Positions 3,733-30,405 of a DNA stretch of 32,667 nt are shown here, one piece after another (position 1 is the first letter of the stretch; each line of letters opens with the position of its first letter). The notes beneath the pieces were generated by a model. That model ran no database searches, had not been told where the DNA came from, and was given only the letters and a program-made list of their open reading frames with translations. Where the stretch lies: contig CAZJUE010000005.1 of the NCBI GenBank assembly GCA_964549025.1, positions 1 to 32,667 on the forward strand, read 5' to 3'. Origin of the DNA: an uncultured Anaerolineaceae bacterium (lineage in GTDB: Bacteria; Chloroflexota; Anaerolineae; Anaerolineales; E44-bin32). Both the position numbers and the translations under genes were made by a program.

Positions 3733-3748
3733 TTCGCTAGCGCTCAGC
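3674..3748. repeat. 27-bp tandem repeat, about 2.8 copies (GGCACTTCGCTAGCGCTCAGCACCGCA)
   Basis: Identical units at 3674-3700 and 3701-3727, partial unit at 3728-3748; spans the moxR stop and DUF58 start. Confidence 0.95.
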
Positions 3749-4738
3749 TGGAGGCACTGGAACGCGCTGAAGCGTGTCTTGCAGGATCTGGCTACGGCTT
3801 TGTTCGCGTAGGCGGGCCTCCGGCGACAGCACGAAGCGATGCCCGACCACGCTCACCAACAGCGACTTTACATCGTCTGGCAGGATGTGGTCCCGACCCT
3901 CGATGGCGGCTTTGGCCTGGGCAGTGCGGTACAGGCTCAGGCTGGCGCGCGTGCTGGGTCCCACGGTGACATCTGGGTGCTCACGGATCGCCCGCACCAG
4001 GCTGACGATGTATTCACGGCCTGCCTCCGACACGTGGATCTGCGTGACGGCCTGTTGGGCGCCCGTCAACTGATCGGCTGTGGCGACCTGCTCAAGCTGC
4101 TCCAACGGATGCTGGAGCTGCTGGTCGTCCAGGATGCGCAGCTCGTCCTCGAATTCGGCGTAGCCCAAGTGAATGCGCATCAGGAATCGATCCAGCTGTC
4201 CTTCCGGCAGCGGGAAAGTGCCCTCGTACTCGAGCGGATTCTGGGTGGCCAGCACCATGAACGGTGCCGGCAGCGGGTGGGTGACGCCGTCGACCGTGAT
4301 CTGGCCCTCACCCATCGCCTCCAGCAGCGCAGCCTGGGTTTTGGGCGTGGCGCGGTTGATCTCGTCGGCCAGCACGATCTGGGCGAACAATGGCCCCGAG
4401 CGGAACTCGAATTCGCGGTTGGCCTGATTGAAGACGTTCACGCCGGTCAGGTCGCTGGGCAGCATATCGGGCGTGAACTGCACCCGGCGGAATGAGCAGC
4501 CAATCGAACGGGCCAGGCTGCGGGCCAAAACCGTCTTGCCTACCCCAGGGACATCCTCGATCAGCAGGTGGCCGCGCGAGAGCAACCCGACCAAAAGCGC
4601 CTCGATCGCGGCGGCCTTGCCGACGATCACCCGCTCGATGTTGGCGGTAAGTTGTTGGGCGAGGGTGTTGACTGCGACGGCGTTAATGACCTCGATCAGC
4701 GGCTCCTGCCTGTACCGCCTGCGGTGCTTGCGGTACAT
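3737..4738 (-). CDS. moxR: MoxR family AAA+ ATPase
   Basis: EDVPGVGKT Walker A, RVQFTPDMLPSD, LADEINRATPKTQAALLEAM, ATQNPLEYEGTFPLPEGQLDRF. True start may be downstream of 4738. Confidence 0.93.
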   Translation of the reverse strand: MYRKHRRRYRQEPLIEVINAVAVNTLAQQLTANIERVIVGKAAAIEALLVGLLSRGHLLIEDVPGVGKTVLARSLARSIGCSFRRVQFTPDMLPSDLTGVNVFNQANREFEFRSGPLFAQIVLADEINRATPKTQAALLEAMGEGQITVDGVTHPLPAPFMVLATQNPLEYEGTFPLPEGQLDRFLMRIHLGYAEFEDELRILDDQQLQHPLEQLEQVATADQLTGAQQAVTQIHVSEAGREYIVSLVRAIREHPDVTVGPSTRASLSLYRTAQAKAAIEGRDHILPDDVKSLLVSVVGHRFVLSPEARLREQSRSQILQDTLQRVPVPPAER

Positions 4739-4759
4739 CCGGACCGAGAGTCTAACAGG

Positions 4760-5233
4760 TCAGAGGTCCTGCAACTCCAGCGAGGTGGTGATCTCCACGC
4801 AATCGCGAATGGTGCGCGCCACCGGGCAATTCGGTAGATGAAAGCGATGCGCTCGCTCCGCCGCTGCGCGCTTCTCTGGATCCAGCTTCAAGGTGTAGCT
4901 GACGTGAATGCGCCGGATGACCAGGATCTTCTCGTCAGTCTCGATCTCGCCGACCGCTTTTGCAATTAGCCGGTCCTCACCGGCTGGGATATCGCGCGCT
5001 TCCAGCGCGCCGCCTAGCGTGCCGGTCAGTCAACCGGCGGTAGCGGCCACCACGTAGTCCAGCGTGGTCGAATGCTCCGGGTGTTGTCCGGGTTGATGGC
5101 CGTAATATTCGGCGATCTCCGAATGGGTGCTGACGTAAAAGCTCTCACCCTCGACCGGCAGGGTGATGATGCGGTACGAACCTTTGAGGCGTTTGACCTG
5201 TACTTTGGAAACGTACACCACCGGATCCGACAT
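4760..5233 (-). CDS. OsmC/Ohr-like peroxiredoxin, probable selenoprotein (157 aa, UGA/Sec at codon 68)
   Basis: SD AAGGAGG before ATG 5233; frame reads ...DYVVAATAG-[TGA 5030-5032]-LTGTLGGALEAR...IRRIHVSYTL...HLPNCPVARTI...LQDL* (stop 4760-4762). TGA sits where the first OsmC Cys is expected; CPV is the second Cys motif. Confidence 0.88.
4976..5029 (-). promoter_or_regulatory. Putative bacterial SECIS element
   Basis: Directly 3' of the UGA: upper stem GCGCGCU/AGCGCGC closing a G-containing loop (GGA, +27 to +29); lower stem ACCGGC/GCCGGU (+4..+9 with +46..+51). Confidence 0.7.
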
Positions 5234-5306
5234 AGCACCTCCTTGTTCAGCTACCAATTGTGAATACCAACTGCCACGCGGGAGCGGCGCCTGGTCCGGG
5301 CACAAG

Positions 5307-6155
5307 TCAGCCCTTGACCGCTCCCATTGTCAGCCCGGACACCAGGCGGTCGAGGAAGAAATTGTAGGCGATGGCCACCGGGATGGCGATGATGATCGCC
5401 GCCGCGACCAAGGACTGCCAGAAAAACACATCGCCGCGGATGAGCTCGGTGGGGATACCGACGCTGATGGTGCGCTGGTCTGACGCGGAGACGAAGGTCA
5501 AAGCGTAGATGAACTCGTGCAGCGTCAGCGTGAAGGTGAACACGATCACCGCGATCACACCCGATCGCGAGAGCGGCATCACAACCTTGCGGAACGCTGC
5601 CAGCCGGCTGTAACCGTCGACCAGTGCCGCTTCCTCCAGGTCGCGTGGGATGGTCTTGAAGAATCCCATCAAGATCCAGGTGGCAAAGGGAATGGTGATG
5701 GTGGGATATACCACCACCAGCGCCCACAAGGTGTTGTTGAGATTCAACGCCACCACGATGCGAAACAGCGGGATGAAGAGCAGGGTGGGCGGCACCAGGT
5801 AGACCAGGAAGATGCCGATTCCGGCTCGTTCTCCCCAGCGGCCGGTCAGCCGCGCCAGACTGTAGCCGGCCGGAATCGATATGGCCAAGGTGATCAGCAC
5901 CACCAGTACGCCGATTACCGCCGAATTTCGGATGAACACCAGGTAATTGGTGTCGAAGAACAGCAAGCGCAGGTTATCCAGCGTCGGGGGCAGGTTGAAC
6001 AGGAACGGATTTCCGAGCTGGCGGTACAGGTCGGCGTCGTCCTTAAAGGTGGTAATCAGCATCCACAGGAAGGGAAAGGCGGTGAAGGTGCAGAAGGCCA
6101 CGATGGCCGCCAGCAGCAGCGGTCGGCGCGCCCAGCGACGCAGGGTGGCGCGCAT
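5307..6155 (-). CDS. Carbohydrate ABC transporter permease (MalG-like)
   Basis: EAA loop IPRDLEEAALVDG; multi-TM. Start moved to ATG 6155 (MRATLRR), which overlaps the upstream TAA. Confidence 0.92.
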   Translation of the reverse strand: MRATLRRWARRPLLLAAIVAFCTFTAFPFLWMLITTFKDDADLYRQLGNPFLFNLPPTLDNLRLLFFDTNYLVFIRNSAVIGVLVVLITLAISIPAGYSLARLTGRWGERAGIGIFLVYLVPPTLLFIPLFRIVVALNLNNTLWALVVVYPTITIPFATWILMGFFKTIPRDLEEAALVDGYSRLAAFRKVVMPLSRSGVIAVIVFTFTLTLHEFIYALTFVSASDQRTISVGIPTELIRGDVFFWQSLVAAAIIIAIPVAIAYNFFLDRLVSGLTMGAVKG

Positions 6156-7090
6156 TACACCACCTCCACTCGCCGTATGGTGCGCAGCATCAATATGGCC
6201 ACCGCCAGCAGCACCGGGAACAGAAACAGCGAAATGGCAGCGCCCTCCGCCAACGCGCCGCCGTCGATCCCCTTGTACCAGGCCCACACGGGCAGCACCT
6301 GGGTGTAATACACGGGTCCGCCGCGGGTGAGCACGTAGACCACGGTCATATCGGTCACGATAAAGATGATGCCGAATAGGGTGGCGATGGCCATGATCGG
6401 CATGATCAGCGGCAGCTTGATTCGCACCAGGATGCGCCAGAAGCTGGCGCCGTCCACTTCGGCTTGATCGACCAGATCTTTGTCGATCGAGGTCAGCCCA
6501 GCCAGCAGGATTACCGTGGCTAGTGGCAGGATCCGCCAAACGTGCACCGCAATCACCGACCCCATGGCTAGGAATTCCTTGCCCAAAAAATGCATGTGCG
6601 CGCCCGGACCGAACACCGTACCGGGTCCCAATAAGTTCAGCTGCTCGAGGACGTAATCAAGCGGGCTGAGCGTGCTATCCAGCAACCACAGCCAGCCAAT
6701 GGTGCCCAGGCTGATTGGTGTGGCCCACGGCAGCAGAATCAGCAGTCGCACCAGCCATTTGCCACGAAAGTCGGCGGCGAGCACCACTGCCAGGATGTTG
6801 GCCAGCACGATGATGATCGCCTGGGCCACGATCGTTATCACCAGCGAGTTGAGCAGCGCCCGCTGGAATTGAGGCGTACGGACGGCATTCTGGAAATTGC
6901 GCAGCCCGACGAAGTCGATGCTGGTGTCGCCCACGGTAACGTCGCTCAAACTGAATGCGATGGCCAGCACGAACGGAACCGCTACCAGCGCCACGATGTA
7001 TAGCACCGCCGGTGCAAGGAAGGCCGGACCGAGCACCTCCTGCCGGTCAGTCATGCGAGCCCAAAACGAGCGACGGGATGCGGTTTCCAT
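6155..7090 (-). CDS. Carbohydrate ABC transporter permease (MalF-like)
   Basis: FVGLRNF, LPWATP, LAGLTSIDKDLVDQAEVDGAS, LTRGGP motifs. Confidence 0.93.
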   Translation of the reverse strand: METASRRSFWARMTDRQEVLGPAFLAPAVLYIVALVAVPFVLAIAFSLSDVTVGDTSIDFVGLRNFQNAVRTPQFQRALLNSLVITIVAQAIIIVLANILAVVLAADFRGKWLVRLLILLPWATPISLGTIGWLWLLDSTLSPLDYVLEQLNLLGPGTVFGPGAHMHFLGKEFLAMGSVIAVHVWRILPLATVILLAGLTSIDKDLVDQAEVDGASFWRILVRIKLPLIMPIMAIATLFGIIFIVTDMTVVYVLTRGGPVYYTQVLPVWAWYKGIDGGALAEGAAISLFLFPVLLAVAILMLRTIRRVEVV

Positions 7091-29385: not shown

Positions 29386-30405
29386 ATGGGCGAACGCTTC
29401 CCGCTTGGCAAGCTGCCGAACCGGGTGCTCAGTGAGCTGCTGGCAAAGATCGATATCCAGGACCCGCGGGTTGTGGTCGGGCCGGGGGTCGGATTGGATG
29501 CGGCGGTGATCGATTTTGGCGAGCGGTACCTGGTGGTCAAGACCGATCCGATCACCTTTGCCACCGACTGGCTTGGATGGTATGCCGTTCACGTCAACGC
29601 CAACGACCTGGCCTGCATGGGCGCCACGCCATCCTGGTTTTTGGGCACCCTGCTGCTGCCGGAGGGCGCCGAGCGCGAGCAGGCGCAGCAGGTGTTCGAT
29701 CAGATCCGCCAGGCCTGCCAGGCGCTGGAAGTCGAGCTAGTGGGTGGACACACCGAAATCACACACGGGATCGATCACCCGATCCTGATCGGCTGTTTGC
29801 TGGGTGAGGTGGAAAAGGCTCGGCTGGTGACCGCCGCCGGCGCCCGCGCGGGTGATGCGGTGCTGCTGGCCGGAGGGGTGCCGATTGAGGCGGTTTCGAT
29901 CATCGCTCGCGAAAAGGCCGAGGCGCTGAAGGATCGCTTCAACGACGATTACCTGGAACGCTGCCGCCGGTTCTTGTTTGAGCCCGGTATCAGTGTAGTA
30001 AAGGCGGCCCGGCTGGCGCAGGACAGCGGGGAGATCCACGCCATGCACGATCCGACCGAAGGCGGCCTGGCGACCGGGCTGTGGGAATTGGCACAGGCAT
30101 CCGGGCTCCGGATCGAGGTGCGTCGGCGTGACATTGCCGTGCTGCCGGAGGGGCAGGCGCTGTGTGATGCGATGGGGCTGGATCCGCTGGCCAGCATCGC
30201 CTCCGGCGCGCTGCTGCTGTGCCTGCCGGCCGATGAGGCGGGGCGGGTGTGCTCGGCGCTCGAGCGGGAGTCGCTTGCCTGCCAGGTGGTGGGCGAGGTG
30301 ATCGAGGCTGGCGAACCGGAAGTGGTCATTCACGACCAGGACGGCACGAGCCAGCTGCCACTGCCTGATCGAGACGAGATCGCCAAGCTGTTTGAAACCA
30401 CCTGA
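29386..30405 (+). CDS. AIR synthase / PurM-fold protein (HypE/ThiL/SelD-like)
   Basis: GKLP, GPGVGLDAAV, KTDPI, NANDLA, GGHTE, MHDPTEGG. Confidence 0.88.
   Translation: MGERFPLGKLPNRVLSELLAKIDIQDPRVVVGPGVGLDAAVIDFGERYLVVKTDPITFATDWLGWYAVHVNANDLACMGATPSWFLGTLLLPEGAEREQAQQVFDQIRQACQALEVELVGGHTEITHGIDHPILIGCLLGEVEKARLVTAAGARAGDAVLLAGGVPIEAVSIIAREKAEALKDRFNDDYLERCRRFLFEPGISVVKAARLAQDSGEIHAMHDPTEGGLATGLWELAQASGLRIEVRRRDIAVLPEGQALCDAMGLDPLASIASGALLLCLPADEAGRVCSALERESLACQVVGEVIEAGEPEVVIHDQDGTSQLPLPDRDEIAKLFETT

Follow-up and report, generated by a model that had tools for sequence, protein, structure and literature searches.

The stretch of DNA analysed here, which we call the window, comprises 32,667 nucleotides (nt) from an uncultured Anaerolineaceae bacterium, and our subject is a candidate selenoprotein gene on its minus strand at 4760..5233. 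Read along that strand, the gene starts with an ATG at 5233-5231, followed by 66 sense codons, an in-frame TGA at 5032-5030 (codon 68), 89 further sense codons and a second TGA at 4762-4760. The whole gene thus has 157 sense codons, with codon 68 counted as selenocysteine (Sec, U), plus the terminal TGA. A Shine-Dalgarno-like sequence, AAGGAGG (5244-5238, minus strand), is read 4 nt upstream of the start codon and may serve in initiation. The read-through product is 157 amino acids (aa) long, with U68 in the context AATAG-U-LTGTLGGALEAR and C136 within NCPVARTI. Codon 68 (5032-5030, minus strand), which we predict to be read as Sec, occupies the column of the N-terminal, peroxidatic Cys of OsmC and Ohr proteins, while the TGC codon of Cys136 (4826..4828, minus strand) lies in a CPVAR motif and encodes the presumed resolving cysteine. 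The terminal TGA (4760..4762, minus strand) is an ordinary stop; orthologues end at the same place, mostly with TAA or TAG.

The open reading frames listed under genetic code table 11 split this gene in two: a 91-aa frame ends at 5030, and a 43-aa frame is the only one listed in the remainder. The preliminary description of this DNA had proposed that the frame stays open for 89 codons past the TGA at 5030-5032 and that standard pipelines would truncate the gene. Translation with TGA read as U bears out the first point and matches the proposed 157-aa product, with U68 and C136, exactly. The second point holds as well, since table 11 splits the gene and the NCBI records of its homologues are 89-aa fragments.

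The read-through protein matches the Pfam OsmC domain (PF02566) over residues 57-150, a region that spans the TGA, with 40.5 bits against a cut-off of 27.5; the genomic frame with its one TGA scores 32.1 bits on the same model. Five OsmC-domain loci are present in the organism's own genome, and this is the only one with a TGA. No NCBIfam model reaches its cut-off for the protein, and the model for OsmC proper (TIGR03562) gives 19 bits against a cut-off of 85.8, which places the protein outside that family. The lack of a model above cut-off fits with the fragments found in NCBI-sourced records.

A phmmer search of the single protein against PDB sequences returned no match and the profile search gave weak ones, so a comparison of folds was needed. 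With 25 homologues as input, AlphaFold models the read-through protein confidently as one domain, with a predicted local distance difference test score (pLDDT) of 95.3 and a predicted template modelling score (pTM) of 0.88. In this model, U68 lies on a long helix (57-79) and C136 where helix 119-135 meets helix 137-142. A Foldseek search against the PDB gave 63 matches at E <= 0.001, and those listed are OsmC, Ohr or OsmC-like proteins; the best is 2onf (E 5e-9, TM 0.75/0.84), followed by 1lql, 1ml8, 1ukk, 6ebg, 1qwi and 1n2f. In the profile-to-PDB alignment with Thermus thermophilus OsmC (1ukk), whose E value of 0.038 is weak, column 68 is matched to the Cys of 'HAGCF' and C136 to that of 'GCPVSR'. 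The layout proposed earlier, an OsmC-type N-terminal Cys plus a CPV-type Cys, is thereby recovered, as U68 and C136 align with both cysteines of 1ukk. Of the 120 best database homologues, 118 have Cys in the C136 column, and R21 is Arg in all 86 Sec-form sequences. The N-terminal part carries conserved residues of its own, namely V5, Y7, S9, G18, R21, P26, H37 and Y44.

The TGA is conserved among relatives to a remarkable extent. Among 40 relatives, with full-length matches counted separately from weak partial ones, eight have a full-length match (53-74% identity), and all eight have one TGA at the same column, so that with the window's own gene it is kept in 9/9 full-length matches; two further weak partial matches are other paralogues. 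The eight orthologues end with TAA or TAG at the same place or within a few codons in six cases, with TGA in one, and with a TGA further on in one. In a collection of species-representative genomes, 584 stretches were confirmed as relatives, and the best 80, kept for codon reading, have TGA at column 68 without exception (50-72% protein identity). The record titles of these 80 loci name Chloroflexota (several classes), Desulfobacterales, NC10, Nitrospirota, Acidobacteriota, Dormiibacterota, Actinomycetota, Acidimicrobiia and Thermoleophilia, as well as KSB1, Latescibacterota, Poribacteria, Bacteroidota, Rokubacteria, Eisenbacteria, Anaeromyxobacter, Kiloniellales and one labelled archaeon.

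Three phylum samples gave the same picture. In Chloroflexota, 19 of 401 genomes match and TGA is present in 19/19 matches. In Acidobacteriota, where 49 of 301 genomes match, TGA is found in 54 of 55 rows, the remaining row being the N-terminal piece of a split match. The Actinomycetota sample (52 of 401 genomes) has TGA in 46 of 55 rows and no stop in nine; leaving out three TGA rows from genomes flagged as unpublished, the counts become 43/52 rows and 49/398 genomes. All nine stop-free rows carry Cys (TGC or TGT) at column 68. This agrees with the earlier expectation of Cys or Sec at this column, to which nine Cys entries among the 120 best database proteins can be added.

The TGA is also present in assembled public sequencing runs, among which no RNA run is listed. 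A Logan contig of 492 nt is identical to the window over 4603-5094, TGA included, although its run, possibly the source sample itself, is not independent. A second Logan contig of 203 nt shows a strain variant sampled in another study, which matches 4961-5161 except at 20 positions. These are confined to 5045-5123, upstream of the UGA; the TGA, the hairpin described below and the whole 84-nt stretch containing them are unchanged. The suggestion that relatives would keep the TGA thus holds across the 80 loci, the three phylum samples and the contigs of two studies. As a side observation, C follows the UGA (at 5029 in the window) in 81 of 86 aligned sequences and the wobble base preceding the UGA is a pyrimidine in 78 of 85, which may reflect a context preference around the Sec codon.

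Downstream of the UGA lies an apical hairpin of the bacterial selenocysteine insertion sequence (bSECIS) type, GCGCGCU-GGA-AGCGCGC (5010-4994, minus strand), which has 7 base pairs (bp) and the loop GGA, is 17 nt long and starts 19 nt after the UGA. With the U of UGA as position 1 it spans positions 23-39 and is made of the codons for G75-A76-L77-E78-A79-R80. The 17-nt hairpin alone folds at -11.2 kcal/mol, a value matched by none of 200 shuffles, while a longer segment of 66 nt, beginning just upstream of the UGA, folds at -32.3 kcal/mol (z -3.14, 1/200 shuffles as good). The lower stem of this 66-nt fold has all five pairs in 22 of 86 related sequences, which is not above shuffles. The two-stem hairpin directly after the UGA that had been described is therefore retained in part: one apical hairpin is conserved, but it starts 19 nt downstream, and the lower stem is not conserved.

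In the bSECISearch model, as summarised in the legend of Fig. 2 of PMC13188914, the consensus bSECIS has a loop 3-9 nt long that carries G in its first two positions, an upper stem of 4-16 bp, a UGA-to-loop distance of 16-37 nt and a minimum free energy <= -7.5 kcal/mol. The window hairpin lies within all of these limits, with a 3-nt loop starting GG, 7 bp, 26 nt from UGA to loop and -11.2 kcal/mol, and compared with that consensus it is unusually invariant in sequence across phyla. In a survey of 86 unique Sec-form genes, the 7-bp form occurs in 81 and a shifted 5-bp form in the other five, with no sequence lacking both. Across the 81 sequences with the 7-bp form, 98.9% of cells are paired and variation is limited to G-C/G-U and U-A/U-G exchanges; the loop base G30 is G in 81 of the 86. 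The minority form, G[CU]GC[CU]-CUYGA-[GA]GC[GA]C, is shifted in register by two and contains two-sided changes (C24-G36 to U24-A36 and C27-G33 to U27-A33). It is carried by Dehalococcoidia-labelled and other Chloroflexota loci (L048, L051, L091, L092, L096) and by loci of Actinomycetota genomes (L120, L121, L125, L127), and its loop G is not in the first two positions, which puts it outside the consensus bSECIS model.

A test of synonymous freedom in the same 86 genes, over 49 codon columns with a conserved four-fold-degenerate amino acid, is informative about constraint on the RNA. The wobble entropy at codons 75, 76, 77, 79 and 80 is 0.41, 0.32, 0.32, 0.09 and 0.67 bits, whereas the 44 other columns range from 1.18 to 1.99 bits, with 1.99 at the neighbouring Gly74. 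The Leu77 codon is CUN and the Arg80 codon CGN in all sequences. The check for a bSECIS that the preliminary description had called for therefore came out in its favour: the 17-nt hairpin meets the published constraints and its wobble sites are nearly frozen.

The organism's own genome (G000; 447 contigs, 88.6% complete) contains the Sec machinery that had been implied. We found selA (538.9 bits), part of selB, selD (356.5 bits) and a tRNA-SeC(tca) of 95 nt on contig C82. The selD gene (C4:32698-33630, minus strand; locus L001) carries an in-frame TGA of its own in the context TCAG-U-ASKL, because of which the selenophosphate synthetase (SelD) of this organism is itself a predicted selenoprotein. 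A second AIR-synthase-type frame lies in the window at 29410-30171 (plus strand); it scores 80.7 bits on the selD model, below the cut-off, and probably encodes a different AIRS-family protein, not SelD. TGA ends the gene itself and 19 of the 39 open frames of >= 250 codons in the window, and since the orthologues in relatives mostly end with TAA or TAG, a genetic code in which TGA is a sense codon is, as judged from these frames, excluded. In Chloroflexota, selA is present in 17 of 18 gene-positive genomes against a background of 308/401 (303/396 when five unpublished genomes are left out), and because selA is so common, this co-occurrence is too weak to serve as evidence.

Taken together, the observed basis of our interpretation consists of a conserved UGA, the pairing of Sec with Cys forms, a constrained hairpin, an OsmC fold and a genome that contains Sec machinery. 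The observation of a hidden UGA-containing OsmC-like gene is confirmed, and its interpretation as a selenoprotein gene is supported; we are confident, from the sequences compared, that this is a genuine, mis-annotated selenoprotein gene of an already known kind.

Several results weigh against this interpretation. Of 238 homologues in the protein database, the best 120 have W at column 68 in 82 entries, a gap in 21, C in nine, G in four, L in three and R in one. The preliminary description had itself named Trp at this column as speaking against it, and at face value the 82 W entries are just that; G, L or R in eight of the 120 proteins points the same way. When 241 million metagenome records were scanned for the exact pattern G-[TGC/TGT/TGG]-L-T-G-T-[FL]-G-G-A-L-E-A, without a positive control in that collection, two records with a non-TGA TGN codon were returned, both TGG. 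In the main form of the hairpin, none of the 7 pairs shows a two-sided compensatory change among the 81 sequences, and covariation shuffles equal the observed values. Such covariation cannot arise here because in every pair one partner is a wobble base and the other is dictated by the peptide G-A-L-E-A-R; the support therefore comes from synonymous constraint and not from classical covariation. An Rfam scan of 4500-5500 at E <= 10 gave six weak unrelated matches and no SECIS family, a result that says little. The selB match (230.6 bits, profile positions 78-579) is cut by the contig start and stays below its cut-off of 242.25, and one gene-positive Chloroflexota genome (G286) has no selA match. 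Finally, we take the closest folds (2onf, 1lql and 1ml8) to be poorly characterised OsmC-like proteins with poorly defined functions and not proven peroxidases.

The W entries can be accounted for without a tryptophan in the protein. Because all 80 loci read on DNA show TGA and the metagenome scan gave only two TGG records, the 82 W entries most likely represent TGA translated by metagenome gene callers under code 4 or 25, as extrapolated from the DNA of other loci. The same scan found no TGC or TGT record, and so no Cys-form DNA, among its 241 million records. In the two TGG contigs (L108:601-638 and L109:601-638), the hairpin sequence GGCGCGCTGGAAGC is kept, and L109 diverges downstream of the TGG codon as if frameshifted; these codons may have arisen by recent mutation or sequencing error, or may be genuine Trp variants. 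All 21 gapped entries are fragments of 86-101 aa, mostly 89 aa, whose starting M falls on the codon after the TGA, and those from NCBI sources carry the name 'OsmC family protein'. Judged from the DNA, the W calls and the fragments together reflect a systematic artefact of annotation, through which searches at the protein level miss the family. One entry from an NCBI source (P0045, on a 5.9-megabase contig) has L at the Sec column.

Among the alternatives, the one that survives best is that an alternative code or SECIS-independent read-through makes the UGA a codon for Trp, Gly, Cys or Arg and not for Sec. The W at this column in 82 of the 120 database proteins and the two metagenome records that are truly TGG speak for it, as does the C that follows the UGA in 81 of 86 sequences, UGA followed by C being a leaky context. 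However, TGA acts as a stop at the end of the gene and of 19/39 long frames in the window, the carriers belong to many standard-code phyla, and all nine stop-free homologues carry Cys, not Trp. The scan for other TGN codons gave its two records only, the hairpin fits the bSECIS model and is under synonymous constraint, and the Sec machinery is present, with selB cut at the contig start. We therefore regard the ordinary-amino-acid reading as very unlikely.

Slightly less probable again is a selenium switch with two products, in which a 67-aa peptide or a separate 89-aa part is made and the full-length protein is a minor, selenium-dependent product. Bacterial Sec insertion competes with termination, and in most loci the codon after the UGA is CTG, TTG or ATG, where annotators start their 89-aa proteins. 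Against this, neither half is a folding unit, as the N-terminal strands pack with the C-terminal sheet in one OsmC domain of the AlphaFold model, and the Cys-form homologues are single proteins of 150-160 aa. There is also no evident ribosome-binding site before the second part, where the upstream bases are fixed by the codons A-A-x-A-G. That the locus is an OsmC-like gene inactivated by a nonsense mutation, or a sequencing or assembly error, can be practically discarded: table 11 does split the frame and NCBI-sourced records do list 89-aa C-terminal fragments as 'OsmC family protein', but the TGA stands at the same column in 80/80 loci of many phyla at 50-72% protein identity and recurs in the three phylum samples, both halves are open and conserved, and contigs of two studies contain it.

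With a selenoprotein as the preferred reading, the question is how this one relates to those already described. OsmC-like selenoproteins have been known since 2005, and the principle is not new. The Sargasso Sea metagenome study lists an 'OsmC-like protein' selenoprotein family with 3 Sec sequences, COG1765 and the motif UxxT (PMC1088965), which bears out the earlier statement that Sec-containing OsmC-like proteins are known. A table on the Global Ocean Sampling (GOS) data counts 5 Sec against 161 Cys homologues for this family (PMC2398784), and it is named again in reviews of 2022 and 2026 (PMC9312934 and PMC13188914) and in a study of Olavius symbionts. The NCBIfam model NF041052, 'OsmC-related (seleno)protein', appears to represent this described family; we equate the two because the motif of its members is UxxT, an equation by motif which the papers do not state. 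In Chloroflexota, 14 of 301 genomes exceed the NF041052 cut-off, with TGA in 14 of 15 over-cut-off matches and true members scoring 115-174 bits. These members read GF-U-L-L-T-Q and have the second Cys in ERGC or ERAC.

The described family and the gene studied here have much in common. Both belong to the OsmC superfamily (PF02566), place Sec at the N-terminal helix Cys and occur in Chloroflexota. NF041052 members also have a short hairpin, GCCCG-GUA-CGGGC, with a G-first triloop about 16-20 nt after the UGA, a design like that of the window; it is borne by loci L154-L160 in genomes G178, G241, G142, G089, G101, G246 and G238. However, the window's protein scores only 12 bits on NF041052 against a cut-off of 95, and BLASTP finds no similarity to an NF041052 member (E = 18). 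The window's protein carries AG-U-L-T-G-T, where Thr stands at +2 and +4, together with xCPVAR, and so lacks the U-x-x-T that NF041052 members have as U-L-L-T. Among 25 members of the present clade, five match NF041052 (best E 1.2e-6), and against NCBIfam as a whole they give only weak E values, the best being 2.6e-8, with bit scores available for the first member alone. Both genes occur in genomes G113, G238 and G246, from which we infer that they represent paralogous clades. Sec forms dominate the present clade, while Cys homologues dominate the described family in the GOS table (PMC2398784). A search of five Desulfobacterota and Latescibacterota genomes found no NF041052 member above the cut-off. 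In the window's own genome, two tandem OsmC-like frames at C113:6227-7297 (plus strand) score 80-82 bits on NF041052, just below the cut-off, and have no TGA; apparently they are related to the described selenoprotein clade as Cys forms. Its motif and profile scores set the gene studied here apart from the described UxxT clade and place it in another OsmC-like clade, which is widespread and dominated by Sec forms. We found no separate description of this clade in openly available full text, a scope that leaves out supplementary tables and subscription journals.

The relation to OsmC and Ohr proper is one of fold and active-site layout. E. coli OsmC (1qwi/1nye), T. thermophilus OsmC (1ukk) and Ohr (1n2f/6ebg) share the fold, with Foldseek E values of 4e-7 to 9e-6, and have two conserved redox residues at the same places, on the N-terminal helix and in the CPV motif, by analogy with which the chemistry is proposed to be the same. 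The window's protein differs from them in having Sec for the peroxidatic Cys, in an identity of 10-20% and in an N-terminal part with its own conserved residues. The best structural matches are Ta0195 (2onf), the Mycoplasma pneumoniae OsmC-like protein (1lql) and 1ml8 (TM 0.64-0.75 on the query and 0.76-0.84 on the target); these are Cys or non-Sec proteins and are 14-18% identical to the window's protein.

We consider it very probable that the 157-aa protein is an OsmC-superfamily redox protein in which Sec (U68) replaces the N-terminal active-site Cys. That it is specifically a hydroperoxide reductase is suggested by analogy, and this we hold with moderate confidence only. The chemistry of OsmC and Ohr and the roles of their two cysteines are the basis of the cycle that we propose. 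Following the known bacterial pathway, SelB with Sec-tRNA(Sec) would bind the hairpin at 5010-4994 and deliver Sec at the UGA at 5032-5030, through which translation would continue. Sec68 on the long central helix would then attack the hydroperoxide, as in OsmC/Ohr chemistry, giving a selenenic acid, which Cys136 of the CPVAR motif may resolve to a selenenylsulfide. A thiol, or dithiol, reductant would presumably regenerate the enzyme.

The genes next to the selenoprotein gene seem to add little to this picture. Its downstream neighbour encodes a MoxR-type AAA ATPase (3737..4738, minus strand; Pfam AAA_3, 215.8 bits) and its upstream neighbour an ATP-binding cassette (ABC) transporter permease (5307..6191, minus strand; Pfam BPD_transp_1, 67.8 bits), so that the position noted earlier, between an ABC importer and moxR on the same strand, is upheld by Pfam, with both neighbours recurring in close relatives only. 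Across the 1.5-kb flanks of the 80 related loci, no conserved neighbour was found beyond the gene itself and spurious overlapping frames, and a similar permease lies upstream in 7 of the 80. Neither the permease nor the MoxR ATPase is a conserved partner; both are confined to close relatives.

It is quite possible, although we put this tentatively, that the gene represents a second Sec clade of the OsmC superfamily, separately evolved or long diverged from the first, which is present in at least a dozen phyla, is almost always in the Sec form, uses one of the most invariant bacterial SECIS elements known (GCGCGCU-GGA-RGCGCGY) and went unrecognised through fragmenting and Trp annotation. With 584 confirmed loci in species-representative genomes and 5-16% of the sampled genomes in three phyla, its systematic mis-annotation means that selenoproteome and antioxidant inventories undercount the clade in Chloroflexota, Acidobacteriota, Actinomycetota, Desulfobacterota and others. 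That the clade has many more Sec than Cys forms argues for a genuine catalytic benefit that selenium brings to this enzyme. The tiny SECIS, near-identical across phyla and overlaid on a conserved peptide, offers a clean case for RNA and protein constraints sharing the same codons, and also for how the SelB proteins of distant phyla recognise one element. If the proposal is true, the clade would provide a phylum-spanning model for the recognition of SECIS by SelB and a marker of Sec use in uncultured lineages.

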